Counted from the stretch's first letter, positions 1-58,395 are shown. The stretch is 58,395 nt of DNA from an uncultured bacterium (GCA_965533305.1 CBESWV010000001.1:1-58395), one strand, 5' to 3'. The notes: a model not told the origin generated them from the sequence alone. A program made the numbers and translations.

Positions 1-3000
1 GATCTCCTCGGCCTCGAGCGACCGCCGATCAACGCGACCGCGAATCTCGAGCTCGAGGCGAGCTGGCACCCGGATCGACCCGGCGACACTCGAGTGCTTG
101 CCGAGTTTGGGGATCTCCGGCTGCAACATCTCGGGGGCGAATTCACGGCAGAGGAACCGCTCACGGTGCGTGCGTCGGGAGACAGGATCGAAATCGAACC
201 CGTGTCGCTCAGAGGTCCTCAGACGGTGATCAACGCTGAAGGGGGAGTGAATCTCGTCACCGGCGAAATGGATGGATCCATCGACGCGCTTCTGGCCCCA
301 CGGTTTGCTCGAAACATTCCATACCCGGTTCAGATTCACGAACCCATCAGCCTCTCGGCGACCATGGGAGGCAACCTACGGCGCCCGGAGGTTTCACTCT
401 GGGTCAACCACCCCGGAGGCGCCCTCGTTTTTCGGGATCCCCCGCTTCGGATCCGCGATCTGGTGCTCTCGGCGGAATGGGTTGATGGAGCGTTGTGGAT
501 CAACGACGGGCGGGCGAGGGTCAACCAGGGAACCATGGAAATCGGCGGCGGCTGGGACCCCGTTTCACGCCAGGGCGTCGTCGCCGAGTTCGAACATGTG
601 GTCGTCTTTGTCGGCGGCATCCTCAGCCAATGGACGGGGGCGGTCGCCGTCGAACCCGAGCCCGGCCGGATCGCGACCGTGGCCGGCGAACTCAACCTGG
701 TGGCCGGTCTGTGGGATCAGAACGTCAGCCTCGGCGGCGCCCTTTTCGGATCCAGCTCCCTCGAACCGACCATTGATGATCCTTTGAACGATGTCTTCCT
801 CGATCTCGATGTGCGCGGACGCGGTGTCGTCAGGGTCGAGAACAACCTCGGCAGGTTTGATGCCCGCTGGGACGTCCTCCGTGTCACCGGCACCGCGGCG
901 CAACCGAGAATCAAGGGGGAGATCACCATCGCGCCGGGCGGGCGTTTCGCCCTCGCCGGCCAGAAGGTGACGGTGCGACGAGGGAATCTGGTTTTCACCG
1001 GGGACCCGGAAGTGGATCCGATCATCGAGATCGTGCCGGAATCCGACATCGCGGTTTTCGGGGGCTCCGAGGGCGGGCTCAACACCACGACCATGGCGAC
1101 CGAAGCACTGGTCGGCGGGATTGCGGGGGCCCTCGGCTTCGAAAACGAGACCCTGCAACCCGCCGAGATCTCGGTGGAGACCGAAAAGGACTCGGCCGAC
1201 AACTTCCTGTTCGGCCAGAGGGTGAGCCACAACGTGGCGCTTTTCTTCGCCACCAACACCACCGACGTCCAGGATCGGACCTCCATGCTCCAGTTCTGGA
1301 ATCTGCCGGGTCTCAAGGGGCTGGCGTTTCAAGGCTATGAAAAGACGCTAACTAGCGAGGTCGGCGGGAACGTCATCCATCGGTTCCAGTTTGGTGGCTC
1401 GTCGCTCTATGCCGACCGGCCGACCATCCGCAAGTTGAGGCTCAACGGGGAGTGGCCGCTGAGCAAGCGAAAACTCAGGAAATCCACGGGCTTCAGACGG
1501 GGGCAACCGTTCGACCCATTCCTCGAGTTTGTCGCGCGCGTTCGCATGGAACGAACGCTCGCGGCGGCGGGATACCAGGAGGCTCGGGTCCATGCCGAGT
1601 CGGTGGAGTCCAACAACGCCTGGACCCTGAACTTTGAGTGCGAACCGGGCGAACGGCAGGAGATTGTCTTCGAGGGTGATGAGCCTCCACGGCGCATCCG
1701 GGACGAGGTAACGGCGCTCTATCGACACCCGCCGCTCGAGTCATTCGGCTTTCGGAACATGCAGATCCTCCTCGAACGTCACTTCGATGTCGAGGGCTAC
1801 CCCGATGCCTCGATCGTCATCGAACGGCGTGGCGAGGAGGTGGTGGCCGAGATCTCGCCTAAGGGTCTGACTGAACTCAGCGGTCCGTTCCTGGAAGGGG
1901 TGCCGGAGTCGGTTTCCGAGGCGGTCGTGAATCGTCTCGGCAAAGCGAACGAGCTGGCCATCCTGTCCGAGGATGAAGAGCGGGCGATCAGGATGATCGA
2001 GCGGGTCCTCGCCGATCAAGGTTATCGCGAGGCGCGCGTCGAGTCGGTGGAGACCGTGGCCACCAGCGCCGAACGGGCGGAGGTCCGGGCGGTGGTGGAG
2101 CTTGGCCCCCGGGCAGTGGTCGGAGAGTTGATCGTCAGCGGGTCCGATCCTCTCGGTCTCACCGCCGCCGAGGACTTCCCGCTCAGGATCGGAAGTCCCC
2201 TCGATCGCCTGAGCGTCGATCTCGCCGCGAGCCAGGTGCGGGCCGGTTACGACGCCGCCGGGTACTCGGATGCGGTTGTTCGGGGTTCGGCGGAGGAGAT
2301 CCCCGATGGCGGATGGGTGGTGTCGATCTTGATTGAGCCCGGGATTCAGCGGATCCTCGAGGGCGTCGTTGTCAACGGGCTGAAGCACACCAGCCCGCGC
2401 GCGATTGTTTCGGGTGTCTCCATCGAAGAGGGTGAGATTCTGCGCAACTCTGATCTCGATGCGACCGCGGCTCGGATTGCGAATTTCGCTCCCATCGAAA
2501 GAGTCGACGTGCGAACCGTACCGCAGGGCAGCACCGGCGCCAACGTTGAGATCGATGTCATCGAAAAACCGCGCTGGACCACCGAGGTCGGTGGCGGCTG
2601 GAGCTCGGAACGCGGCGCCCAGGCGCGATTCGGCCTGCGCGACGACAATCTCATCGGGCGCGGTTTCGGCCTCAATCTCCGCGGCCGCTGGGACCAGACC
2701 GAGTGGCTCGGTTTCATCGTCGCGTCACTCCCACCCCTGCCCGGCAAGAAGCTGTCGTTCATCTCCACCATCGGCTACTCGAGCGGGGACGCGCCGGAGA
2801 GCCCTGATCTCCTGGCTCAGGACGAAGCCTCATGGAGCATCGATGCGACCCGTCGTGTCGGGAGCGGGCGAAAGGGATCCGCGGGCTACGCCTACGGCGA
2901 CAGCGGGCAGCAGGTCACCGCCTACTATCGTTTCACGACGACCCATGTCTACGAAAAGGTACCCGATCCGGACTTTTTCGTTCCCATCGACAACACCACC

Positions 3001-3594
3001 CGGGTCGGTCTCATCGGTGCGCGCTACGTGCGCGATCGATTCGACTACCCCTTCGACCCGAAATCGGGTCATGGACTACTCCTCGATCTCGGCTACAGCA
3101 ACAACCTCATCGGCTCGGATCTCGACTACTGGACGGGCCTCGGCAACGGATCCGTGGCCTTGGGGGTCTTCGGATCCAGCACCTGGATGCAGAGCCTGCG
3201 GATCGGGGTGGTGGAACCGCTGCACGGAACCAATCTCGATCGGCTAGCGAAGTTCTTCGCCGGGGGTCAGGGTTCGGTCCGTGGTTTCGACCGGAACACG
3301 GTCGGGCCGACCATTCTGGACAGCCCGGTCGGCGGCGGGGCGCTCTTCATTCTCAACGAGGAGCTGCGGATTCCCGTGTGGGGGACCTTCAGGGCCGCGG
3401 TCTTCGCCGATGTCGGTCAGGTGTGGGAGAGCTGGGGCCACGCCAACATCCACATGTCGGTGGGGGTCGGAATCGGTGTGCGTTGGGCGACTCCGGTGGG
3501 ACCCCTGTGGGCCGATATCGCCTGGCCGGTAGTCAACACCGGGATCAGCTCAACCAAACCAAAGTTCTACGTCGGGATCGGGAGGCCGTTCTAG
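1..3594 (+). CDS. TamB-like (DUF490-type) C-terminal module fused in frame to POTRA repeats and an Omp85 (TamA/BamA-type) beta-barrel; 5' end cut by the window edge
   Basis: Frame 1 is open from nt 1; the track ORF 94..3594 only begins at an internal GTG. Around nt 850-1390 there are TamB C-terminus-like motifs (VTGTAAQPRIKGEITI, RGNLVFTGDPEVDPIIEIV, LFGQRVSHNVALFF). About nt 1420-2570 encodes repeated POTRA-like units. About nt 2570-3594 encodes a surface-antigen barrel ending in the OMP beta-signal FYVGIGRPF. Confidence 0.8.
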   Translation, partial: DLLGLERPPINATANLELEASWHPDRPGDTRVLAEFGDLRLQHLGGEFTAEEPLTVRASGDRIEIEPVSLRGPQTVINAEGGVNLVTGEMDGSIDALLAPRFARNIPYPVQIHEPISLSATMGGNLRRPEVSLWVNHPGGALVFRDPPLRIRDLVLSAEWVDGALWINDGRARVNQGTMEIGGGWDPVSRQGVVAEFEHVVVFVGGILSQWTGAVAVEPEPGRIATVAGELNLVAGLWDQNVSLGGALFGSSSLEPTIDDPLNDVFLDLDVRGRGVVRVENNLGRFDARWDVLRVTGTAAQPRIKGEITIAPGGRFALAGQKVTVRRGNLVFTGDPEVDPIIEIVPESDIAVFGGSEGGLNTTTMATEALVGGIAGALGFENETLQPAEISVETEKDSADNFLFGQRVSHNVALFFATNTTDVQDRTSMLQFWNLPGLKGLAFQGYEKTLTSEVGGNVIHRFQFGGSSLYADRPTIRKLRLNGEWPLSKRKLRKSTGFRRGQPFDPFLEFVARVRMERTLAAAGYQEARVHAESVESNNAWTLNFECEPGERQEIVFEGDEPPRRIRDEVTALYRHPPLESFGFRNMQILLERHFDVEGYPDASIVIERRGEEVVAEISPKGLTELSGPFLEGVPESVSEAVVNRLGKANELAILSEDEERAIRMIERVLADQGYREARVESVETVATSAERAEVRAVVELGPRAVVGELIVSGSDPLGLTAAEDFPLRIGSPLDRLSVDLAASQVRAGYDAAGYSDAVVRGSAEEIPDGGWVVSILIEPGIQRILEGVVVNGLKHTSPRAIVSGVSIEEGEILRNSDLDATAARIANFAPIERVDVRTVPQGSTGANVEIDVIEKPRWTTEVGGGWSSERGAQARFGLRDDNLIGRGFGLNLRGRWDQTEWLGFIVASLPPLPGKKLSFISTIGYSSGDAPESPDLLAQDEASWSIDATRRVGSGRKGSAGYAYGDSGQQVTAYYRFTTTHVYEKVPDPDFFVPIDNTTRVGLIGARYVRDRFDYPFDPKSGHGLLLDLGYSNNLIGSDLDYWTGLGNGSVALGVFGSSTWMQSLRIGVVEPLHGTNLDRLAKFFAGGQGSVRGFDRNTVGPTILDSPVGGGALFILNEELRIPVWGTFRAAVFADVGQVWESWGHANIHMSVGVGIGVRWATPVGPLWADIAWPVVNTGISSTKPKFYVGIGRPF

Positions 3595-3618: not shown

Positions 3619-4404
3619 CTATTTTCTCGTCGCGAGAAGGGCTTTGGCGGTCTTGGCTTCCGGTGAGTTCGGCGCCAGCTTGACGAACTGATCGAGATCG
3701 ATGAGGAAGTTGTCCTTCCGGCCGAGTTTGTCCCAGGCAAGCCCACGATAGAAATAGAGATGTGCGTATCTCGGGTCCAATTCGTGGACGGAGTCAAAGC
3801 TCTTCTTGGCTGCTTCCCAGTTCTTCTGGATGAGAAAGGTGAGCCCGATCTGGAAATCGACCATGGGTTTGTCAAAGCCGTACTTTGCAGCCTTCTTCAG
3901 CGCCTTTCGCGCTTCAACGGCATTTTTTTGGCGGACTTTGGAGGCGCCGAGATAAAATTGGGCTCGCGCGTCCCTGGAGTTTTTCGCCACCTGTGCTTTG
4001 GCTCGGTTGAGGGCATTCTGCCAGGCGGCTCTGGCCTTGTCGGATTCACCCACCCACTTGAGCACCTCTCCACGGTAGAACTCCGACACGGGATCACCCG
4101 GGTCCTTCTTGGACTGTTTGTCGAGAATCGCGAGGCCCTTCTTGACCGTCGCCTCGTCCTGCCCGATGCCGAAGGTTGCCATCAAGAGCGCCTCTGCGGT
4201 CAACCACGGCTGGGAATTTTCGAACTTCAGGTTTTTCTTGAGGATGGACTCCGCAGTCTTCGGTCGCCATGCCACGGATTTCGAAATGGCACGGTCGCGA
4301 ACCCGCTCCGCTCCGGCCTGGGGAGCATCCGCAGCCTGCGAGGGAGCCACCACCAGAGCAGCGAATATGATCGACAGCGCAACCCTCAGCGTCTTCCAAG
4401 TCAT
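3619..4404 (-). CDS. Secreted TPR-repeat protein
   Basis: ATG at 4404 with a GGGAGG RBS upstream. N-terminal signal peptide (ALVVAPSQA/AD). Lys/Ala-rich helical repeats with TPR-like spacing (YFYRGLAWDKLGR, EFYRGEVLKWVGE). Confidence 0.7.
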   Translation of the reverse strand: MTWKTLRVALSIIFAALVVAPSQAADAPQAGAERVRDRAISKSVAWRPKTAESILKKNLKFENSQPWLTAEALLMATFGIGQDEATVKKGLAILDKQSKKDPGDPVSEFYRGEVLKWVGESDKARAAWQNALNRAKAQVAKNSRDARAQFYLGASKVRQKNAVEARKALKKAAKYGFDKPMVDFQIGLTFLIQKNWEAAKKSFDSVHELDPRYAHLYFYRGLAWDKLGRKDNFLIDLDQFVKLAPNSPEAKTAKALLATRK

Positions 4405-4583
4405 TCTCGACCTCCCGGTCCATAGTCCTGTCGGTCATGATGCCACAGACCGCGGTGATTTCCGACGAGGTTTTTCAGATGGTCACGACAGACCCGAGCG
4501 GATGATCGCCATCCACTTCGGCGCAAACAACCGACCGTGGGTGGAGATTGAGATTTCCTGCTAGGCTCCATAACCGGAGTTTC

Positions 4584-9896: not shown

Positions 9897-10900
9897 TGCG
9901 TTCCCTGGTGACCGGTGGTGGAGGATTCCTCGGCGGCGCCATCGTTCGTCGCCTCCTCAGCGGCGGGGACAGCGTTCGAACCGTTCAGCGCGGGGACTAC
10001 CCTGAACTCGGCGCCCTGGGCGTCGAGTGCATCCGGGGCGATATTGCCGACCCGGAGATCGTCGATCTCGCCGTCGCCGGGTGTGATCGGGTTTTTCACG
10101 TTGCCGCCAAGGTCGAGATGTGGGGGCCACGAGAACCCTTTCGGCTCGCCAACGTGGTGGGAACCGAGAATCTTCTGCAATCCATGCGCCGTCATGAAGT
10201 TCGCAAGCTCGTCTTCACGAGTTCTCCAAGCGTGGTCCACGGCGGCGAAAATATCGAAGGCGCCACGGAGACGCTGCCGTACCCGGATCAATTCGAGGCG
10301 GCCTACCCTGAGACCAAGGCCGAAGCAGAGCGTCTGGTCCTTGCCGCAAACTCGGCTGAATTCTCGACGGTCGCCCTGAGGCCGCACCTTATTTGGGGAC
10401 CTGAAGACACCAATCTGGTGCCGACCATTGTCGACCGCGCCCGGACCGGGCAGCTTCGACTGGTAGGGGATGGATCGAACCTCATCGATACCGTCTACAT
10501 CGACAACGCCGTGGATGCGCACGTCCTCGCCGCCGAACGTCTGGGGCCGGACTCGGCCTGCTCGGGGCGGGCCTATTTCATCACCAATGACGACCCGAGA
10601 CCGATTCGAGAGATCATCAACGGCTTCGTGACAGCTGCCGGACTCCCTCCTGTCGAGAAAACCATCTCGGTAGGAATGGCCGTCGCCGCCGGGAGGATCT
10701 TTGAGGCGATTCACCGTATTTTTCCATCACCGTCCGGACCCCGGATGACCCCGTTTCTCGCCCGCCACCTCTCGACGGCGCACTGGTACGACATCTCGGC
10801 CGCCAAGAGGGATCTCGGGTATGAGGCCACGGTGGGGATCGATGAGGGTATGGTGCGGTTGAGGCAGTGGTTTCAATCATCCGCAGGGGGGTCCGCATGA
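9896..10900 (+). CDS. oleD: OleD-type NAD(P)H-dependent reductase (3-beta-HSD/epimerase family)
   Basis: Rossmann motif VTGGGGFLGGAI and a 3-beta-hydroxysteroid dehydrogenase-like body. ATG 9896 overlaps the oleC stop by 1 nt (TGATG). Confidence 0.8.
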   Translation: MRSLVTGGGGFLGGAIVRRLLSGGDSVRTVQRGDYPELGALGVECIRGDIADPEIVDLAVAGCDRVFHVAAKVEMWGPREPFRLANVVGTENLLQSMRRHEVRKLVFTSSPSVVHGGENIEGATETLPYPDQFEAAYPETKAEAERLVLAANSAEFSTVALRPHLIWGPEDTNLVPTIVDRARTGQLRLVGDGSNLIDTVYIDNAVDAHVLAAERLGPDSACSGRAYFITNDDPRPIREIINGFVTAAGLPPVEKTISVGMAVAAGRIFEAIHRIFPSPSGPRMTPFLARHLSTAHWYDISAAKRDLGYEATVGIDEGMVRLRQWFQSSAGGSA

Positions 10901-12620: not shown

Positions 12621-14189
12621 ATGTTCAGACCGGTCACATTGTTGTGCGCGCTGGCTCTGGCCTCGTCGGTGGGGGCTGGTGAGGGGCCAGACTATTCTGA
12701 GCTTCCAGGATGGATCCAGGCGCAGATGGCTCTGAAAACGGTTCCGCCCTCCGTCGCCGATACCGCTGCGATGAAGAGTGATTCTCAGTCCTGGGCGGAA
12801 CTCATCGACGAGACCTGGGGTGAGGGACTGAGCACTGGCGAGAAGCTCTTTTTCTTCGACACTTTCTGGCACGCCGTCAATGATGAATTCGCATGCTTTC
12901 AAGGCCTCGATGTGGACTGGTCGGCGCTCAGGGATCACTACCGACCCGAGGTCGTGTCCGGGGTCAGCAAGGGTCGATTCGCCGCGATCATGAGCCGGCT
13001 CTCGCTCGCACTCATGGATGCTCACACCGTCGCGCTCGACAGGGTCGTTTTCTGGCGAACCGCCTCGGTCCCCGGTGTTCCGCTCCTCGTGGTTGGGGGG
13101 TGGGGTTATCTCCGCGAGTTCGGTGCATGTCTGACACCACTGTCCGATCGATCACTGCTGGTCTACAAGGCGCTGGATGACCATCCCCTCGGCCTCGCGC
13201 CCGGCGACATTATCACCGGGTATGAGAGCCGGGCTTGGGCCGAACTCTATCCGGAGATGCTCGAGCATGGCCTCCCGGTCTCCGGTTTTTGGGGCAGCAG
13301 CGATGAGACCTACGAGCACGCTTGGTTGATGGCCGCTGGGGCCAACTGGCACCTCTTTGACACGATCGATATCAAACGACACGGCTCTGGTGAGATCGAC
13401 CACCTCTCCACCACGCTGATGGCCGGATACAACGAGCAATTGTGGTGTACCGAGCAGTTTCCGATTGCGGGTGTGGCCATGCCCGACTTCAATCATGAAC
13501 AGCTCTTTTCCTGGGGTGTCATCGAGGGAACGAAGATCGGTTACATCTATGGTTGGGGTTGGGCCTGGGATGCCGAACGGGAGTTTCAGGAGGCGGTTGA
13601 AGCGTTGATGACCGAGCACGAAACCGACGGTCTGATCATCGATTTCCGCTTCAACATGGGCGGAAACATGCACCTCAGCAATCCCGGTCTTGCCCTCCTT
13701 TTCGACCGGGTTGTTCCCACCATCGACTGGGTCACCCGGTGTCATCCTGATCTCCACCTGGCGCTGTGCGACGAGGATATCTGGCCGTCGTATGTCATTC
13801 CAGGGGATCCCGAAACGGGGTATGACAAACCCATCGCGGTCCTCGTGGGCCCGGGTTCAGTGAGTTCCGGGGATCAGGTCGCCCTGCGGATGAAATTTCA
13901 CCCGAAGGCGCGGTTCTTCGGAAAGTCGACCAATACCGCCTTCAACGCCGCGGCCTTGCTGTATTCGGATGACGAGTGGCGGGCCACGTATGCGGTCGCT
14001 GACGCCTATCTGTTGACCAACCCGGGGGAGTACCTCACCCACGACCCTCTCGAGGTGGACCATGCCGTTTGGCTGACGCCGGACGATGTTGCGGAGGGTC
14101 GGGACACCGTCGTCGATGCGGCGGTGGAGTGGATTCGGGGTTTCCGATTCGCCCCCAGGAGTGTAACGGGACGAGCCTCGCCACCGTGA
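12621..14189 (+). CDS. Secreted S41-family (tail-specific-type) peptidase-like protein
   Basis: Signal peptide (LLCALALASSVGA). S41-like motifs LIIDFRFNMGGN and AVLVGPGSVSSGDQVA. Confidence 0.65.
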   Translation: MFRPVTLLCALALASSVGAGEGPDYSELPGWIQAQMALKTVPPSVADTAAMKSDSQSWAELIDETWGEGLSTGEKLFFFDTFWHAVNDEFACFQGLDVDWSALRDHYRPEVVSGVSKGRFAAIMSRLSLALMDAHTVALDRVVFWRTASVPGVPLLVVGGWGYLREFGACLTPLSDRSLLVYKALDDHPLGLAPGDIITGYESRAWAELYPEMLEHGLPVSGFWGSSDETYEHAWLMAAGANWHLFDTIDIKRHGSGEIDHLSTTLMAGYNEQLWCTEQFPIAGVAMPDFNHEQLFSWGVIEGTKIGYIYGWGWAWDAEREFQEAVEALMTEHETDGLIIDFRFNMGGNMHLSNPGLALLFDRVVPTIDWVTRCHPDLHLALCDEDIWPSYVIPGDPETGYDKPIAVLVGPGSVSSGDQVALRMKFHPKARFFGKSTNTAFNAAALLYSDDEWRATYAVADAYLLTNPGEYLTHDPLEVDHAVWLTPDDVAEGRDTVVDAAVEWIRGFRFAPRSVTGRASPP

Positions 14190-14850: not shown

Positions 14851-17800
14851 CTACCAGGCTCCGTATCGCGGATCCTCCTCTATCCCATCGAGCCGCACCC
14901 GGACCGCGGTCTCGAGTTGGGTGTCGGTGATTTGGGACGAATCCTCTGCCGGAGGCTGCCAGACGACCACATCGGGCTGCGCTCCCTGCTTTTCCATGTT
15001 GATCCCGGATCCGGCGACATACCAGCCTCGGCCTGGAAGACGCACGAGGCCACCGTTGATCAGACCCATACCGCCGGTGGAGATGACGGCGCCGAAAGTG
15101 GGGGAGCCGACCAACGGGCCCCGGCCGAGGGTCTGGAAGGCCCACGAAAAGATCTCGGCGTTGGAATAGGAGTCCTCGTTGCACAGGGCGACGGCGGGTC
15201 TGGTGAAGGCCCCGACCGGGAGTCGCTCCGAGGTCGGGTAGGACCTCACCGAGGGATCGCCATCGCGTGGGATGGTGAAGGCATGCCTCTGGACGGTGAG
15301 CACGGCCATGAGGTAGTCGGTGGTCCAGCCGCCGCCGTTGGACCGGACGTCGATGATCAGCCCCTCCTTGCCATCGGCGGCGGCAAAGAGATCGCGCTCG
15401 AAGACCTCAAAGGACGGTGCGCTCATGCCCTGGATGTGGAGATAGCCCAGACGGCTGTCTGAGACTTCGTCGACAATCAGCCGGCGTTGCCGAACCCACT
15501 CCTCATACCGGAGTTGGCGGTGTGATCCGTAGTCGATTGGACGAAGGATGACCGAACGTGTTGATCCATCCGATGCCACGACCGTGGTCGGTACCCGTTC
15601 ACCGATGGTGTCGACAAAGAAGTCGTAGATGTTGGTATCCGACTCAATCTCATGACCGTTGACGGTGAGAAGGCGTTCTCCGGCTTTGATCCCGACCTCG
15701 GCGTTGGCGGCGGGAGAGTCGGGCAGAATCTCGCTCACCAGAAGGCCGGGGCCTTCAGCGGTGGGATCGAAGACGGCGCCGATCCAGCCGGTTTGGTCGC
15801 CCTCGGCGGAGGTGCCGCGGCCGGTGGGGTAGTAACCCATGTGTGAGGCGTTGAGTTCGCCAAGCATGAGATTGACGACATCTGAGAAATCAGCCTCACA
15901 GGACGCCTCGACGGCCCAGGGACGATAAAGATCGTGGATGCCGGCCCAATTTGCGCCGTGAAACCCGGGGTCGTAGAAATTGTCGTTGAGTGCGGCCCAC
16001 GCCTCGTCGAAGATCACCCCCCGCTCCACCCGCCGGTCAACTTCGTAACGAGCCTTGAACGGGACCGGATCCCCGTCGGAGCCGTCCATGCCGATCCGGT
16101 TGATCGTGCCGTCACCGTCTATAAAAAAGAGCGTCTCCTCGTCGATGAGTTGGACATTGTCGGGATTGGTGTCTCCCTCAGTGAGGCGTTCGAGTTCCTC
16201 ACCGTCGAATCGGATGCTGAAGAGATCTGTTTCGTCCTCGGCCTCGCCGACGAGGAAGATTTTTTTGCCGTCGGGACCCACAACCACCGGATATTCATTA
16301 CCGTTGAGGGTCGTCAGTTTGACCGAGCGTCGCCAAAGTCGATCAAACTCGATCACCGTTTCGGGCAGATCGGGAGGATCAGACTCATCTTCTTCGTCGC
16401 TTTCATCGGTTGAATCATCGCCATCGTCCTCGGGTTCATCATCACTCCGCCACACCTTGAGCCACTCGGCGGCCGTTCGTTGGTGATCCGCCTCGGTGAG
16501 CCAGACCGCCCAGACATCAAAGTTATTGTCATGACGATGTGATCCCCACACCAGGCGTTTCCCGTCCGGCGACCAAACCGGGTTCTCGTCGAAATCAGGG
16601 TGGCGGCTGACGTTGTAGGGCTCCCCACCGGATGCAGGCACGATGAAGATTTCGGAGTTCGCGTGCTGATCCTCCGATGCGTAGGCGATCCACCGGCCGT
16701 CGGGCGACCAGTTGAAGGTCGGTGGGTAGAAATGGTCGTTGAGCACTATTTCGTTCCCGCCTTCGGCATCCGCAACAACGAGTTGTCCCTTGCCGCGGAC
16801 AAATGCGATGAGCTTTCCATCGGGAGAGAACTGCGGATCCTGCTCGTTCTCCGGCCCGGTGGCGATGGGATTGGTGGTGAAATCGAAGCTGTCGGTCCAC
16901 GCCGCATCCTCGTCGGCACGAGTGACGGAGAAGAGATCGAAATTGCCGTTGCGGGCGGAGGTGAAGACGAGGGCCTCACCATCGGGGGCCCAACGTGGTT
17001 GCTGCTCCCGCTCGGGTGTCGTGGTGAGGCGTACCGTCGGTGGCTTGGCGATTTCCTGGTCCTCTTTGGAAACGATGTCGGTCACAAAAATATCGCCGTG
17101 GATCACAAAGGCTGCGAGCTTGCCGTCGGGACTGATGGTGAGATCCGATGCACCGTCACGTTCGGTGCGCCGCTCGATGGCGTTGACGACCTGATCGGCC
17201 GGTACATTGATGGTCAGCCGAGCCGGAGTCCCATTCGCCGGCGAAACGGTCCAGATACCGTCCTCGAACTCGTAGGCGATGAGCGATCCATCCGCCGAAG
17301 CTTTGGGAAAACGGACCGCCGAACCCTGGTGATCGGTGAGTGCGCTGACCTTGCCGCTCGAAATGTTGAGTTTGAATACGTTCTTCCGACCGTTCCGGCT
17401 CGACAGGAAACTGATGGTGTCGGAATCGAGCCATGACGGGTTGTCGTCATCGCCGTCGAAGTCGGTGAGACGGCGGTAATCGTCATCACCCTCGGTCAAC
17501 CAAAGATCGCGGCTCGCGGATCCGCGGTAACCACGCCGGGTCCATTTGGTGGCGCCCCGGACCATTGCCAGAAAATCTCCATCGGGCGAGTAGACCGCTT
17601 GTTCGGCAAAGGCCTCCTGAAGCATGGCCGGAGTGCCCCCCGTGATGGGGACGGTCCAGAGCTGAGGCATCCAACGGATGCCCATGGCGCGGTTGGATGA
17701 AAAGAGGACGGCCTGACCGTCCGGGGTGAAGCCGTAGGGAACATCGGTCACCGAGGCGTAGGTGAGACGCGTCGGCGGTGCGCTGCCGTCGGCGGGCATG

Positions 17801-18078
17801 AAGAAGATATCCGCGTTGCCGTGCCGGTCCGACGCAAAGGCGATGAGCCGACCATCGGTCGACCACACCGGGTGACGCTCGTTGGCCGGGTGGGCGGTGA
17901 TCCGTCGCGCATCACCACCGGTGGCCGGAACCAACCAGAGGTCACCCTGCCAGGAGAAGGCGATCTGTGAAGCGTCCGGTGACGGCGCCGGGTGGCGCGG
18001 CAGCGGTGCGTCGGCACCCATGACCGTTGCGGCGATGACCAGACTGATGAAAAGGGCAACCGGGGTGTGCAGGCGCAT
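14851..18078 (-). CDS. Tricorn-type protease homologue (beta-propellers + PDZ + S41 peptidase)
   Basis: 1075 aa with a signal peptide and a GGAGGAGG RBS. Repeated TolB-like propeller motifs (P.WSPDG..IAF). PDZ-like region, and a C-terminal S41 core (LIIDVRSNGGG, NEDSYSNAEIF). Confidence 0.85.
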   Translation of the reverse strand: MRLHTPVALFISLVIAATVMGADAPLPRHPAPSPDASQIAFSWQGDLWLVPATGGDARRITAHPANERHPVWSTDGRLIAFASDRHGNADIFFMPADGSAPPTRLTYASVTDVPYGFTPDGQAVLFSSNRAMGIRWMPQLWTVPITGGTPAMLQEAFAEQAVYSPDGDFLAMVRGATKWTRRGYRGSASRDLWLTEGDDDYRRLTDFDGDDDNPSWLDSDTISFLSSRNGRKNVFKLNISSGKVSALTDHQGSAVRFPKASADGSLIAYEFEDGIWTVSPANGTPARLTINVPADQVVNAIERRTERDGASDLTISPDGKLAAFVIHGDIFVTDIVSKEDQEIAKPPTVRLTTTPEREQQPRWAPDGEALVFTSARNGNFDLFSVTRADEDAAWTDSFDFTTNPIATGPENEQDPQFSPDGKLIAFVRGKGQLVVADAEGGNEIVLNDHFYPPTFNWSPDGRWIAYASEDQHANSEIFIVPASGGEPYNVSRHPDFDENPVWSPDGKRLVWGSHRHDNNFDVWAVWLTEADHQRTAAEWLKVWRSDDEPEDDGDDSTDESDEEDESDPPDLPETVIEFDRLWRRSVKLTTLNGNEYPVVVGPDGKKIFLVGEAEDETDLFSIRFDGEELERLTEGDTNPDNVQLIDEETLFFIDGDGTINRIGMDGSDGDPVPFKARYEVDRRVERGVIFDEAWAALNDNFYDPGFHGANWAGIHDLYRPWAVEASCEADFSDVVNLMLGELNASHMGYYPTGRGTSAEGDQTGWIGAVFDPTAEGPGLLVSEILPDSPAANAEVGIKAGERLLTVNGHEIESDTNIYDFFVDTIGERVPTTVVASDGSTRSVILRPIDYGSHRQLRYEEWVRQRRLIVDEVSDSRLGYLHIQGMSAPSFEVFERDLFAAADGKEGLIIDVRSNGGGWTTDYLMAVLTVQRHAFTIPRDGDPSVRSYPTSERLPVGAFTRPAVALCNEDSYSNAEIFSWAFQTLGRGPLVGSPTFGAVISTGGMGLINGGLVRLPGRGWYVAGSGINMEKQGAQPDVVVWQPPAEDSSQITDTQLETAVRVRLDGIEEDPRYGAW

Positions 18079-27312: not shown

Positions 27313-28586
27313 GATCCACCACCAGGGAGGACGGGCCCCGTCGATTCTCGGTTTTCATCACTCGGGTCTTCGGCTGTGGTGGGGTCTCGCAACGCGACAA
27401 GATCGCCGTCTTCGAGTCCGGAGGTGACCACCACCCTCCCGAAGGCAGCGGGTCCGAGTTCGACCTCAGCAGCCACGAATTTTCCCCGTTGCCAGCGGTA
27501 AACAACGGAGGTCCCGTCGAGGCTGCAGATCGCCTGACGGGGAACGGTGATGGCCGAATCGAGGTCGGCAATCGTGATCTCGGCATGGACCCGCGATCCG
27601 GGCTTCATGCGTTCGATATCGGTGCTTTCGAGAGCGAGAACCGTGCGGAAGTACTGGACCGGAACGCGGCGGTTTCTGCGCCCCGCCATGGGATCAATGC
27701 TCTTGAGGGTGGCCGGGTGGGGGACACCGGGGTCGGCCTCGAGCCAGACCGTCGCGGTTTGGCCTGATTCGAGATTACCGGCATCGGCTTCGAGAACAAA
27801 GACCTCTGCCTGCATTTCGGTGAGATCCGGGATCTTGGCGAGGGGACGCCCCGGCCATACCGTGTCGCCGACCCGAACCGGATCCCCGCGCCAATCGCGA
27901 TCCAGCATGACGATGCCTCCGTGTGGGGATCGAACCTCGAGGGCCGCGAGCCCCTCGTCGGCCTGCTGAACCTTGATGTCCGCCTTGCGCCGCTCGATGG
28001 AGAGAAGCGCGATCTCGGCTTCGGAGAGTTGATCTACGATGTCCTGCGACTCGCGGGCGTGGTCGGCCCGGGTTTCGGCGAGCTCGGTGTCGATCTGCGA
28101 TTCGACGATCTCGATCTTCGAGTAGACGAGATTGTCGGTGGACTGAAACTCCCGTGCGACTTCCAACTCCCGATCCGCCACGTCGGCGTCGCGATCGAGC
28201 TTGCTGACGTTGACCTCGCGGGAGGTCTGAGCGCTGCCGAGACGGTGGTCGCTGATCCGTTGGTCGGAAAGCCCGTCCTCACGGTCCTTCTCGAGCTGGC
28301 TCGCATCGAATATCGCGATAACCTCGTTCTCCTCCACGACAGCACCATCCGCCACCAGCCAGGCAAGGGTGAACGGCATTTGCGGTTTCATGGGAGCAGT
28401 GAGTGGGGTGTTTTGGACGGCAGCGAGATTCCCTTCAGCGGTCACTCGTGCTCGAAACTGGCTGCTCTTGACCCTGAGGGTGGGAACCGTGGGACTCGAT
28501 CGGCTGAGAAAGCCCGTAACCACCACAGTGGCGCCGAGCACAATGACGACCAGGGCGAATCCTATCAGCGACGTTCTTCGGGTCAT
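27309..28586 (-). CDS. HlyD-family periplasmic adaptor (membrane fusion protein) 3
   Basis: TM anchor, coiled-coil region and beta-barrel/lipoyl-like motifs. ATG 28586 (MTRRTS) overlaps the upstream stop (ATGA); the longer track start at 28688 is rejected. Confidence 0.75.
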   Translation of the reverse strand: MTRRTSLIGFALVVIVLGATVVVTGFLSRSSPTVPTLRVKSSQFRARVTAEGNLAAVQNTPLTAPMKPQMPFTLAWLVADGAVVEENEVIAIFDASQLEKDREDGLSDQRISDHRLGSAQTSREVNVSKLDRDADVADRELEVAREFQSTDNLVYSKIEIVESQIDTELAETRADHARESQDIVDQLSEAEIALLSIERRKADIKVQQADEGLAALEVRSPHGGIVMLDRDWRGDPVRVGDTVWPGRPLAKIPDLTEMQAEVFVLEADAGNLESGQTATVWLEADPGVPHPATLKSIDPMAGRRNRRVPVQYFRTVLALESTDIERMKPGSRVHAEITIADLDSAITVPRQAICSLDGTSVVYRWQRGKFVAAEVELGPAAFGRVVVTSGLEDGDLVALRDPTTAEDPSDENRESTGPVLPGGGS

Positions 28587-53500: not shown

Positions 53501-53877
<377 letters not shown>

Positions 53878-54108
53878 AATTTTTGGCCCGTGGTGCCCGG
53901 CGCCACGGGCCAATGTTGCTGAAAAGGGTTTAACCTGAGATCAGCGATTCTCACCGGCGATCTGCACCAAGCTCTTGGGCTCTGGATATTTGCGAAAATG
54001 CTCGGAATACCAACGGGTATGCCTGCGCTTTTCGCAAGCACCAGAGTCACAAGCCCTTGGCACATCTCATCCGGCAGAACCGCTCGTCTTAGGTTATTGT
54101 TGGTTTGC

Positions 54109-55796: not shown

Positions 55797-57888
55797 GGCC
55801 GAGTTGCCGCTACGGGCGGACGACCCGGTCCATTGCATCGTGGGCATCGGCCCCAAGACAGCCGCTGCGCTGGAAGAAATCGGGATTCGGCGAGTCGCGG
55901 ATCTTCTCTTCCACCTTCCCAGACGTTATGAGGACCGAGGCGCGGTCATCAGCGTCGACGAAGCCAAGCAACACCGAGGTTCGGTCCTGTTGCACGGTCG
56001 GCTCACCGCCGGTTCGGGCCGCTATGTCCGCCGACGGCTCCACATCAATGATGGCGAACTCGCCGACGACACCGGCGTGATGTCCATTCGCTGGTTCAAC
56101 CAGCCCTGGATGGGCGATCGAGTGGCCGCCGGGGTCGACGCTTTTGTCTACGGTGATGTGGGCCGGGGTAAGACCGGTCAGCAGCAGATGGTGAACCCGG
56201 AAATCGAGATCGCTCCCAAATCCGCGTCGGTGGACGAGGTGGTTCCGATCTACGGACGGCTCGGCTCACTCTCGGGCAAACGACTCCGGAGAGCACTGGA
56301 TCAGGCGATGGACTGCCTCGGTAGTCTCGTGGACCCCGTTCCGACGGCGATACGGCGCCGATTCGCGCTGCTGCCGCTCGGCGAAGCCCTTGGGTGTCTT
56401 CACCAGCCCAAACTACCCGTAGACCCAGGCGAACGGGCTTCGTTCGTCACAGCTCTGAACGAGAGGTCGAACAAAGGGCACTCCAGGCTGGCCTTTGATG
56501 AACTCCTCGCGGTGGCTTCGGTTGTCGCCGGATATCGGGCGCGCCGGATCGAACAGTCGGCAAAACCCATCCGCCTGTCATCGAAGTTCCGCCGCCAGGC
56601 CAAACGGGCGCTGCCCTTCGATCTCACCTCCGCCCAGCAACGGGTGGTGGACGAGATCGTTGCCGATCTCGGCGGAACGATCCCCATGGCCCGCCTGCTT
56701 CAGGGAGATGTCGGCTGTGGCAAGACGGCAGTGGCGATTCTCGCGATCCTCGCAGTGGTGTCCGCCGGCCGTCAGGTTGCATTGATGGCGCCGACCGAGT
56801 TGCTGGCCGAGCAACTTCACCGGTCGGTCTCCACCGCCCTCGGTCCCTTCGGGTATCGGGTCTGTTCGCTGACCGGTTCGTCGGCTGCGGCAGACGCGCG
56901 ATTACGGCGATCGGAATTGGCGAAGGGTGAAATCGATGCCGTCGTCGGTACCCACGCTTTGTTCCAGCAGCGCGTCGCTTACAGCAACCTGGGTTTGGTC
57001 ATCATCGACGAGCAGCATCGATTCGGCGTAGCCCAGCGGCAACGGCTGCTCGACAAGGGCGATTCACCCCATCTTCTGGTCATGACTGCGACCCCGATCC
57101 CGCGTTCACTGGCCCTCACGCTCTACGGCGACCTCGATCTGTCGATCATTGATGAGCTTCCTCCCGGAAGGACGCCCATTCGAACCGAGATCCGGGACTC
57201 CGGCGCGCGGGATCGGATTCTCGGGTTTCTTCGTTCGGAGATCGAAGCGGGCGGGCAGGGCTATATCGTCTACCCGCTGATCGAGGCTTCGGAAAAGCTC
57301 GAAGCTGCCGCCCTCGAAAAACACGAGAGCATTGTCCGCCAAGCCATGGGCCCTGCCGAAATCGGGGTTCTCCACGGACGGCTCGGTCGTGACGAACGTG
57401 AAGAGGTCGCGGATCGCTTTCGCCAAGGGGAGATCAAGGTCATTCTCGCCACCACGGTCATCGAGGTAGGCGTCGATGTGCCCGCAGCCTCGGTCATGAT
57501 CATCGAATCCGCGGATCGCTTCGGCCTGTCCCAACTCCACCAACTGCGGGGACGGGTCGGTCGCGGGAGTCGGAAGTCCTGGTGCGTCCTCATCACCGGT
57601 GACGACCCCACGGAGCACGCATCTCGGCGACTCAGGGTTCTCGCCGCCACAAACGATGGATTCGCCATCGCCGAGGCCGATCTCGAACACCGCGGGCCCG
57701 GTGAGATCACCGGACAGCGGCAGTGGGGCGCTGAGAGTTTTCGTTTTGCAGACCTGCTCCGGCACCGGGACTGGGTCCTTCGCACCAGATCGGTCGCCCG
57801 AGAACTGGCCGATGACGGGAGCCTCGCCGAGATTCGCGATGCGCTCCTGCGATTCCATCCGGTCGGAGCCGAGTTCTCCATCGGGTGA
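55735..57888 (+). CDS. recG: ATP-dependent DNA helicase RecG
   Basis: Wedge and helicase motifs: GIGPKTAAALEEIGI, LPRRYEDR, LLQGDVGCGKT, DEQHRFGV, MTATPIPRSL, QLHQLRGRVGRG. ATG 55735 would overlap the upstream gene by 62 nt. An in-frame TTG at 55804 avoids the overlap. Confidence 0.9.
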   Translation: MTQSSSVRFSAGSRLTPPEPEAELPLRADDPVHCIVGIGPKTAAALEEIGIRRVADLLFHLPRRYEDRGAVISVDEAKQHRGSVLLHGRLTAGSGRYVRRRLHINDGELADDTGVMSIRWFNQPWMGDRVAAGVDAFVYGDVGRGKTGQQQMVNPEIEIAPKSASVDEVVPIYGRLGSLSGKRLRRALDQAMDCLGSLVDPVPTAIRRRFALLPLGEALGCLHQPKLPVDPGERASFVTALNERSNKGHSRLAFDELLAVASVVAGYRARRIEQSAKPIRLSSKFRRQAKRALPFDLTSAQQRVVDEIVADLGGTIPMARLLQGDVGCGKTAVAILAILAVVSAGRQVALMAPTELLAEQLHRSVSTALGPFGYRVCSLTGSSAAADARLRRSELAKGEIDAVVGTHALFQQRVAYSNLGLVIIDEQHRFGVAQRQRLLDKGDSPHLLVMTATPIPRSLALTLYGDLDLSIIDELPPGRTPIRTEIRDSGARDRILGFLRSEIEAGGQGYIVYPLIEASEKLEAAALEKHESIVRQAMGPAEIGVLHGRLGRDEREEVADRFRQGEIKVILATTVIEVGVDVPAASVMIIESADRFGLSQLHQLRGRVGRGSRKSWCVLITGDDPTEHASRRLRVLAATNDGFAIAEADLEHRGPGEITGQRQWGAESFRFADLLRHRDWVLRTRSVARELADDGSLAEIRDALLRFHPVGAEFSIG

Positions 57889-57931
57889 GATGATCTTTCC
57901 GACAATGGCACAATGGCCAAACGGAGGATCG

Positions 57932-58395
57932 ATGAACGCTGATGCACCCCAGTTGGTGGTACGCCCCGAAGAACTGACCAATCTCGATGACTCACCTCGG
58001 CACATGGCCGAGATTCCGGGAAGTCGGATGTTCGAAATCAAAGAGGCATTGGCGGTTTTTCGCCGCACCGATCCCGACGCGGAGGTCTTCGACGCCAGCC
58101 AGGGCGACGGCGGCGCGAGCCTGCCCGGTGTCCCGCGCGAAGTCCTCGAGGCAGCGCACGAGTTGCAAATGGAGCACGGTACGGGGTACGACAAGCCATT
58201 CGGCACCCCCATGTTCCGCCAAGCGGTGGTCGAGGACTACTGGCAACTCGATGCAGCCACCGGTTGGGGACCGGCCAATGTTCTGGCCGGTCAGGGCGGG
58301 CGCGATGTTCTGATCAAGGCGTATGAGGCCGCCCAGTTCCTCGGCCGGAAACGCCGCGGCGACTTCGTGGCGGTGTCCAGGGTGCCGTGGATCTC
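57932..58395 (+). CDS. PLP-dependent aminotransferase (class I/II-like), 3' end cut by the window edge
   Basis: GGAGG RBS then ATG 57932, with the frame open to the end of the window. It is absent from the ORF track because it has no stop codon. N-terminal aminotransferase-like sequence (FDASQGDGGASLPGVP, GYDKPFG, LAGQGGRDVLIKAY). Confidence 0.6.
   Translation, partial: MNADAPQLVVRPEELTNLDDSPRHMAEIPGSRMFEIKEALAVFRRTDPDAEVFDASQGDGGASLPGVPREVLEAAHELQMEHGTGYDKPFGTPMFRQAVVEDYWQLDAATGWGPANVLAGQGGRDVLIKAYEAAQFLGRKRRGDFVAVSRVPWI

Follow-up and report, generated by a model that had tools for sequence, protein, structure and literature searches.

TamB is an AsmA-like bridge whose hydrophobic groove carries phospholipids. 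The first gene in a 58,395-nucleotide (nt) stretch of DNA from an uncultured bacterium (CBESWV010000001.1, positions 1 to 58395; the whole stretch is hereafter called the window) raises the question of whether TamB and its Omp85 partner can be made as a single polypeptide, since a preliminary description of this DNA had read TamB-like and TamA/BamA-like modules there in one continuous open reading frame. Frame 1 was indeed stop-free over 1,197 codons (window nt 1 to 3594, + strand, with TAG at 3592 to 3594), the other two forward frames being rich in stops, and profile hidden Markov models (HMMs) of three Pfam families, i.e., TamB, POTRA, and Omp85, all scored above their gathering cut-offs in the translated frame. 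The GC content by codon position was even along the frame, including the junction block at nt 1201 to 1500 (0.69 to 0.85 at the third position and approximately 0.45 at the second). The landmarks from which the two modules had been read, namely RGNLVFTGDPEVDPIIEIV (nt 979 to 1035), LQFWNLPGLKGLAFQGYEKT (nt 1288 to 1347), and a barrel end with a terminal Phe, were likewise found in place. We consider it likely that this gene encodes a natural single-chain translocation-and-assembly module (TAM), forming a covalent, TamAB-type bridge between the two membranes.

Architecture of the fused protein

The window holds the 3' portion of the fused tamB-omp85 gene (nt 1 to 3594, +; 1,197 codons plus TAG out of 1,967 codons), with the 5' 770 codons lying outside it. 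The N-terminus, which had been placed beyond the window, was recovered in a full-length product of 1,967 amino acids (aa), P0001, which is 100% identical over the shared part and in which window residue 1 corresponds to residue 771 (residues are numbered from the window start below unless P0001 is named). P0001 has the N-terminus MKIRRKLTLIVGIMIAVAVCGLIIL, and its start, MKIRRKLTLIVGIMIAVAVCGLIILHSS, also outside the window, consists of basic residues followed by a hydrophobic stretch of approximately 20 residues; judged by its sequence, this segment takes the form of a TamB signal-anchor. The parts of P0001 follow each other in the order putative hydrophobic anchor, β-rich region of TamB length with DUF490, terminal strands resembling those of outer membrane proteins (OMPs), linker of approximately 10 residues, five POTRA domains, and 16-strand Omp85 barrel. 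An ordinary BamA with an extended N-terminal region, the alternative that the upstream sequence could have revealed, was not what this sequence contained; instead, a full TamB-length region (P0001 aa 1 to 1236) with a putative hydrophobic anchor at its start precedes the POTRA domains.

Residues 1 to 346 (nt 1 to 1038, +) correspond to the C-terminal part of a TamB β-taco. In the AlphaFold2 (AF2) model, this region was nearly all β-strand, with predicted local distance difference test (pLDDT) scores mostly around 90, and when residues 1 to 472 were modelled (pLDDT 76), the only Foldseek matches in the PDB at E < 0.01 were 9xdc_B and 9xdd_B, the TamB chains of the two TamAB cryo-electron microscopy (cryo-EM) entries. 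The DUF490/TamB Pfam match (PF04357; aa 252 to 350, nt 754 to 1050, +) reached 30.9 bits versus a cut-off of 22.4, held the motif RGNLVFTGDP, and recurred in the precomputed annotation of most homologues. With phmmer, the sole match was the TamB DUF490 crystal fragment 5vtg (E 0.021), while hhalign aligned the family profile with residues 749 to 1102 of Escherichia coli TamB over 316 columns (probability 87.7, E 3.4e-6). The NCBIfam TamB equivalog was missed by the window protein (12.7 bits versus 825). After the taco comes a low-confidence, partly helical segment in the AF2 model with a conserved GFENETLQPAEI (aa 347 to 399, nt 1039 to 1197, +), which, from its position and an alignment by eye, would be the counterpart of the amphipathic helices that E. 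coli TamB has between its taco and its terminal strands. The C-terminus of the E. coli protein (...SGYVLPGLQVKYGVGIF...TLTLRYRL...LDLLYQFEF, then the stop) aligned segment by segment with ...FGQRVSHNVALFFATN...SMLQFWNL...GGNVIHRFQF of the window. As a whole, the TamB-like part is 1,236 aa long (P0001 aa 1 to 1236) versus 1,259 aa for E. coli TamB, and relatives carry N-terminal DUF748, AsmA, YhdP, and TamB_N matches; given these matches and the length, the first 770 residues of P0001 appear to be TamB/AsmA-like as well. The TamB-like nature proposed for the N-terminal module was thus borne out by Pfam, by hhalign, by the TamB chains retrieved with Foldseek, and by the DUF748 and AsmA matches of relatives. 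Tested against the TamB family traits as defined by Heinz et al. 2015 (PMC4494059), the protein has OMP-like terminal strands with a β-signal-like last strand, but these are internal, with approximately 730 further residues following.

The TamB segment that ends in the last strand spans nt 1201 to 1392 (+), of which the strand GGNVIHRFQF itself occupies nt 1363 to 1392 and aligns with the E. coli TamB end. It is followed by the junction linker, GGSSLYADRP (aa 465 to 474, nt 1393 to 1422, +), as delimited by the family alignment and a split comparator, and by POTRA1 from nt 1423 (TIRKLRLNGEW), so that the DUF490-like segment does run into the POTRA repeats without a stop, as first described. 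Within the window's family the last TamB strand was near-invariant (Q460 85%, R461 98%, F462 87%, and W464 98%, the last being Phe in the window), giving the pattern QRF-W/F-GG for this OMP-like strand. In the linker, G465 and G466 were conserved in 100% of sequences, positions 467 to 472 were variable, and R473 and P474 were conserved, while in one subclade of the family the linker was approximately 20 residues longer. Since the strand and the GG are near-invariant while the linker varies, we argue that the internal strand has retained a pairing function. The linker sits where split relatives have a stop codon and then a signal peptide, and in the junction alignments no signal peptide was seen ahead of POTRA1 in the fused proteins. 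In AF2 models, the terminal TamB strands reached pLDDT blocks of 67 to 86 with the Omp85 part present versus 58 to 77 without it, and the last strand was 12 versus 7 residues long. Mean-field covariation (direct coupling analysis, 184 fused sequences), aimed at contacts of the last TamB strand with strand 1 of the barrel, gave no usable signal, gap and truncation artefacts dominating and the strand-ladder positive control being absent.

Downstream of the linker, AF2, Foldseek, and Pfam identified five POTRA domains (nt 1423 to 2574, +; approximately aa 475 to 548, 555 to 619, 625 to 700, 706 to 779, and 785 to 855), seen in the predicted secondary structure as five β-α-α-β-β units, with the Pfam POTRA match (PF07244) at aa 474 to 548 (45.8 bits). 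They are followed by a 16-strand Omp85 barrel (aa 859 to 1197, nt 2575 to 3591, +), supported by Pfam (PF01103, aa 883 to 1197, 125.3 bits), by a profile search of the PDB, and by AF2 and Foldseek. The barrel contains the loop-6 motif VRGF (aa 1093 to 1096, nt 3277 to 3288, +), in which R1094, G1095, and F1096 were invariant, and it ends in the C-terminal β-signal KFYVGIGRPF (nt 3562 to 3591, +) with F1197 as the terminal residue. The AF2 model of all 1,197 window residues (pLDDT 80.7) aligned over approximately 800 columns with full-length five-POTRA BamA chains in Foldseek (E 3e-39) and superposed on TamA 4c00 with a TM-score of 0.74. With the family profile, the PDB search gave 232 bits for Neisseria gonorrhoeae BamA and 189 bits for Pseudomonas aeruginosa TamA; among barrel-only chains, TamA (113 and 97.5 bits) ranked above BamA (approximately 78 bits). 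The Omp85 module is therefore BamA-like by the number of its POTRA domains and TamA-like by its barrel. Canonical traits of either protein were missing: for BamA, there is no signal peptide of its own and the neighbours are not skp or lpxD; for TamA, there are five POTRA domains versus three, and the module is not a separate polypeptide encoded upstream of tamB but is fused downstream of it. A "second BamA copy, sister to TamA" has been described in Acidobacteria by Heinz et al. (PMC4494059), and the Omp85 module fits this description.

Conservation of the junction and split relatives

Fusions of this kind could result from a frameshift, a missed stop, or a chimeric assembly that had joined an adjacent tamB and omp85. 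The genomic loci of relatives were examined by scanning one genome per GTDB species with a closer junction alignment (A3), a first alignment (A2) having been too divergent. The scan returned 30 loci, all from metagenome-assembled genomes (MAGs) of Acidobacteriota (Thermoanaerobaculia) except one labelled Methylomirabilota. Complete open frames of 1,963 to 2,133 codons were present at 18 of the 30, and a further 4 were cut by a contig end yet continuous across the junction, so that the junction lay in one frame at 22 loci. The other 8 were interrupted (L002/L032, L005, L014, L023, L026, and L029 to L031). All of these came from long-read assemblies with "contig_N" names, and in each the protein alignment resumed in another frame at 1 to 7 scattered positions within this one 6-kb gene; in L002, the adjoining tetratricopeptide repeat (TPR) gene was frameshifted too. 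Because the frame changes are scattered and the protein coordinates contiguous, the interruptions are best read as sequencing errors rather than gene boundaries. Some database entries also look split, P0096 to P0100 being TamB-only and P0081 having only POTRA and Omp85 domains, but together with the 8 interrupted loci these were rejected as split orthologues after tblastn showed scattered frameshifts; frameshifted long-read assemblies thus give rise to false "TamB-only" and "Omp85-only" public gene calls. Apparent splits and interrupted loci are what would speak for an assembly artefact, whereas independent assemblies at 18 complete and 4 edge-truncated loci, along with approximately 100 distant clusters, keep both the frame and the short linker, and the codon bias is even across the junction. 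An artefact is accordingly extremely improbable. Among the relatives, the modules were hence fused at 22 of 30 species-level loci, with the rest on frameshifted long-read contigs, although genuine split relatives also exist. The locus in the MAG labelled Candidatus Methylomirabilota (L008, DATHSO010000055.1) encodes a fusion 67% identical to that of the window at the junction, and its phylum label is probably a binning or labelling error, not evidence of a second phylum.

A first homologue search returned more than 90 proteins of approximately 1,930 to 1,985 aa with TamB, POTRA, and Omp85 domains and 34 to 84% identity. They came from JGI, ENA, NCBI, and Logan assemblies, the named ones belonging to Thermoanaerobaculales, "Holophagae", and Sulfomarinibacteraceae, and they are labelled "BamA/TamA family" or "TamB domain-containing" in the databases without comment. 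When 1.84 billion cluster representatives were searched exhaustively with phmmer, 414 matched at E < 1e-30. The best 150 of these 414 comprised approximately 25 full-length clusters of the window's own family and approximately 80 distant proteins (25 to 31% identity, 1,860 to 2,293 aa) that were matched unbroken across the junction; at least approximately 100 clusters (50% identity) of 1.86 to 2.29 thousand residues share the same junction. A junction HMM reaching from the last TamB strand to POTRA1 matched 81 of the 98 new representatives with 1,800 aa or more, and 83 of these 98 had an N-terminal hydrophobic segment (an uncharged 18-mer in the first 60 aa). The junction of these distant members is laid out as ...LQQxxELGG, 8 to 12 residues, and POTRA1 strand 1, and DUF748/AsmA, TamB, POTRA, and Omp85 were confirmed by Pfam in four of them. 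The architecture, short linker included, is thus conserved across Thermoanaerobaculia and a much wider set of proteins. Cluster look-ups gave names for only two of the distant fusions, both from Acidobacteriota, and a third fused group includes a Polarisedimenticolaceae protein. Named fused proteins come from two classes of Acidobacteriota, and the fusion is probably present in further classes of the phylum.

Linkage to TamB was also seen for the closest Omp85 proteins that are not fused. At three loci (L035 to L037), a 1,367-aa TamB ending in ...FALDFRVRHRF before its stop codon is followed by a 988-aa Omp85, in the same gene order as in the fusion, and the TGA stop of tamB overlaps the ATG start of omp85 (TGATG; L035 5990 to 6010, also in L036 and L037). 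The L035 Omp85 has its own signal peptide, MRVLWRVSLSCLLAAVVVCPAVVALAQ, and approximately 185 extra residues without counterpart in the fused proteins. This pair is closer to the Polarisedimenticolaceae-type fusions (26 to 28% identity) than to the window's family. In L034 and many Terriglobia (Terracidiphilus, Telmatobacter, and Occallatibacter), an Omp85 of approximately 1,000 aa is instead encoded ahead of tamB, matching the arrangement given by Heinz et al. 2015 (PMC4494059). The L035 operon plausibly shows what preceded the fusion. With the TamB stop and the Omp85 start overlapping, one small change could fuse the two genes. Most plausibly, the fusion would have arisen from such a tamB-omp85 operon that lost the stop codon and the signal peptide of Omp85.

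Predicted topology of the single chain and alternative readings

A chain of this kind would have to span both membranes, and the preliminary description had seen a biogenesis puzzle in this. This paradox is weaker than was thought, because cryo-EM work from 2026 locates the N-terminus of ordinary TamB to the inner membrane and the last strands to the outer membrane (PMC12800296, PMC13119328). Since ordinary TamB already reaches both membranes, the fusion makes covalent a contact that exists anyway. In the cryo-EM structures, a hybrid barrel is formed by pairing of the last TamB strand with strand 1 of TamA (PMC12800296; PMC13119328), a state reported to be stable and functional (PMC13119328). 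For Borrelia TamB and its five-POTRA BamA, AlphaFold3 (AF3) predicts the same strand augmentation, with POTRA1 close to POTRA5 (PMC13382580). By analogy with TamAB, the fused chain would be exported by Sec with its N-terminus kept in the inner membrane, and its C-terminal barrel would be inserted by the β-barrel assembly machinery (BAM) through its own β-signal. The TamB β-taco may then serve as a lipid conduit across the periplasm, like that of E. coli TamAB, and there is about an even chance that the internal last TamB strand and strand 1 of the barrel in the same chain pair to give a hybrid barrel in cis. Indirect support for the cis hybrid barrel, which we hold at even strength, comes from the conservation of the strand and from the rise in pLDDT when the Omp85 part is included in the model. 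Given cis pairing, the five POTRA domains would close into a loop beneath the lateral gate, because only approximately 10 residues part the last TamB strand from POTRA1.

Some observations weigh against a single-chain bridge. Taken alone, the first 770 aa of P0001 gave no Pfam match; a possible SSA/V cleavage site follows the hydrophobic segment, so that an anchor and a cleaved signal peptide are both conceivable; the NCBIfam equivalog cut-offs for BamA (TIGR03303, 161.5 bits versus 297) and TamA (NF047950, 101.8 versus 625) were missed; and permanent occupation of the gate in cis is hard to reconcile with a role as OMP insertase. The missing Pfam match, together with the weak similarity to E. 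coli TamB noted above for 5vtg and hhalign, would also suit a reading in which the first 1,236 residues, instead of being a lipid bridge, extend an Omp85 protein as a passenger-like or structural region and their resemblance to TamB is local and incidental. This is very improbable, considering that the TamB Pfam match is above its cut-off, that the length is close to that of E. coli TamB, that the C-terminal domain aligns with it end to end including the last strand, that TamB chains are the only significant Foldseek matches, and that relatives have DUF748, AsmA, and TamB_N matches at the N-terminus, where a putative anchor is present. It is also conceivable that the polypeptide is a precursor, cut in the linker to yield a two-subunit TamB and Omp85 complex, with the fusion serving co-translation and stoichiometry only. 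The conserved flanks (GG, R473, and P474) around a variable linker core could be a processing site, and a free C-terminal aromatic residue would restore the canonical β-signal end of the last TamB strand. No protease motif or autoproteolytic domain was detected in a Pfam scan, however, the linker has only approximately 10 residues in most members, and the TAM literature searched yielded no precedent, which leaves processing improbable.

If the chain stays intact, its terminal TamB strands could still dock in trans, either in a second copy, as a head-to-tail oligomer, or in a separate BamA, leaving its own lateral gate free and the barrel a possible insertase. Cis pairing is made awkward by the linker of approximately 10 residues, through which POTRA1, normally the domain farthest from the barrel, directly follows the last strand; the Foldseek superpositions on BamA had a root mean square deviation of 13 to 18 Å, which makes the geometry of the POTRA arm uncertain, and Borrelia TamB docks on a general BamA (PMC13382580). 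On the other hand, the Borrelia AF3 model sets POTRA1 beside POTRA5 and so makes a closed POTRA loop plausible (PMC13382580), AF2 models the terminal strands with greater confidence when the Omp85 part of the same chain is present, and a 1:1 interaction in cis is the simplest explanation for a covalent 1:1 fusion. We regard docking in trans as unlikely, if somewhat less so than processing of a precursor. The role of the barrel also depends on whether these bacteria have another BamA. No second Omp85 was found in the window or in approximately 550 kb of locus sequence, and the non-fused Omp85 matches were rejected as canonical BamA, being instead TamB-associated paralogues of Terriglobia, members of the L035-type operon, or alphaproteobacterial-looking by consensus. 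A separate BamA in these genomes is nevertheless likely, given that the barrel is TamA-like, that the gene neighbourhood is atypical, and that Heinz et al. described a phylum-wide pattern (PMC4494059). It seems improbable that the fused Omp85 is the sole BamA-type insertase of these bacteria; if it were, a TamB lipid bridge would tether the essential OMP insertase covalently and permanently to the inner membrane, its gate would be occupied in cis, and one polypeptide would carry out both protein insertion and lipid delivery. The combination of a separate BamA, a single-chain hybrid barrel, and a five-POTRA array forming a closed periplasmic loop has, in our estimate, a roughly even chance of being correct.

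Gene neighbourhood, known systems, and implications

On its contig the fusion gene stands alone, with opposite-strand MAPEG and pyruvate dehydrogenase genes upstream, a convergent TPR gene downstream, and MatE also nearby; no separate tamA or bamA lies beside it there. The convergent neighbour (nt 3619 to 4404, -) encodes a 261-aa secreted TPR protein with a signal peptide and no lipobox Cys, and it is syntenic across the family: a TPR protein of approximately 260 aa (signal peptide ...APSQA/ADAP) was convergent just past the fusion gene at 28 of 32 loci. TPR genes were also found beside fusions elsewhere (L040 14463 to 15260, L041 10158 to 11006, and L042 12610 to 13422, all -), and TPR proteins 30% identical to each other (E 3e-25) accompany a fusion only approximately 29% identical to that of the window. 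Beside the Polarisedimenticolaceae-type fusion (L043), the TPR neighbour was absent. It is possible that the TPR protein is an accessory factor of the fused machine. We do not claim it as a BamD homologue, as only generic TPR matches and none to BamD were obtained.

The rest of the window (nt 4548 to 58212) is otherwise ordinary housekeeping, with no further envelope-biogenesis gene. It encodes a MatE exporter, KAS III, a hydrolase, an acyl-AMP ligase, a malate/lactate dehydrogenase, a phosphonate-type ABC transporter, an L,D-transpeptidase, a MacB/HlyD pair, 2-oxoglutarate dehydrogenase E1/E2/E3, amidohydrolases, a GGDEF protein, and phosphofructokinase. Two S41-family peptidases are encoded near each other (nt 12621 to 14189, +, and 14851 to 18078, -), the larger (14851 to 18078, -) being a 1,075-aa protein with a tricorn-like PD40 β-propeller and PDZ and S41 domains; a related Tricorn_N/PD40 protein is encoded upstream of the fusion gene on contig L001. 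A full-length bacterial RNase P RNA of class A was located at nt 53503 to 53879 (+, 297.6 bits), and no tRNA genes were found in the whole 58-kb window. Three open reading frames gave no Pfam match (57106 to 58212, -; 9915 to 10379, +; 27547 to 27969, +).

The preliminary description had known of no characterised fused form, and no description of a TamB-Omp85 fusion was found in the full-text literature searched. Among the closest known systems, E. coli TamA-TamB has a matching set of parts, with an inner-membrane anchor (putative in the fusion), a β-taco of approximately 1,200 aa that includes DUF490, OMP-like terminal strands of which the last is β-signal-like, and a 16-strand Omp85 barrel that bears POTRA domains and the VRGF motif. 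In E. coli, however, there are two genes, tamA then tamB, and two polypeptides, with TamA having its own signal peptide and three POTRA domains, whereas the fusion is one polypeptide, TamB then Omp85, with five POTRA domains, no internal signal peptide, and an internal last TamB strand. The BAM-TAM of Borrelia burgdorferi (TamB BB0794 and BamA BB0795) resembles the fusion in the order tamB then bamA and in its five-POTRA Omp85 (PMC13382580, PMC11361582, PMC5582053), as well as in the hybrid barrel predicted to form through the last TamB strands, with POTRA1 near POTRA5 (PMC13382580). It differs in consisting of two separate proteins and in that TamB there has the only, general BamA of the cell as its Omp85 partner; the fused barrel scores as TamA-like. 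In the split tamB/omp85 operons (L035 to L037 and L034 of Terriglobia), TamB likewise adjoins a dedicated multi-POTRA Omp85, but the latter is a separate protein of approximately 990 to 1,000 aa with its own signal peptide and more N-terminal sequence. Outside bacteria, chloroplast TIC236-TOC75 has a TamB homologue that bridges two membranes and docks on an Omp85 barrel, yet it is eukaryotic, made of two proteins, and assigned to protein import; the TOC-TIC chain 7xzi_9 was among the weaker Foldseek matches of the TamB part. Finally, in patatin-like PlpD and WD40-like Omp85 proteins (Heinz and Lithgow 2014, PMC4104836), a partner-like domain also lies N-terminal to the Omp85 barrel, but the fused domains are small, soluble, and not anchored in the inner membrane, and none is TamB (PMC4104836).

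There is dispute over how the outer membrane end of TamB is attached, and both hybrid-barrel and disengaged states were seen in one cryo-EM study from 2026 (PMC12800296). A large natural family in which the two proteins are one chain is independent, evolutionary evidence for a permanent 1:1 association of TamB and Omp85, and the spacing of approximately 10 residues puts a hard geometric constraint on the position of POTRA1. The gene also offers a single-gene target of fixed stoichiometry for structural work and for engineering covalent TamB-TamA constructs, and it bears on whether TAM-type barrels with an occupied gate can still act as insertases. Beside the two known operon orders of TamB and its Omp85 partner, the fused form constitutes a third arrangement.

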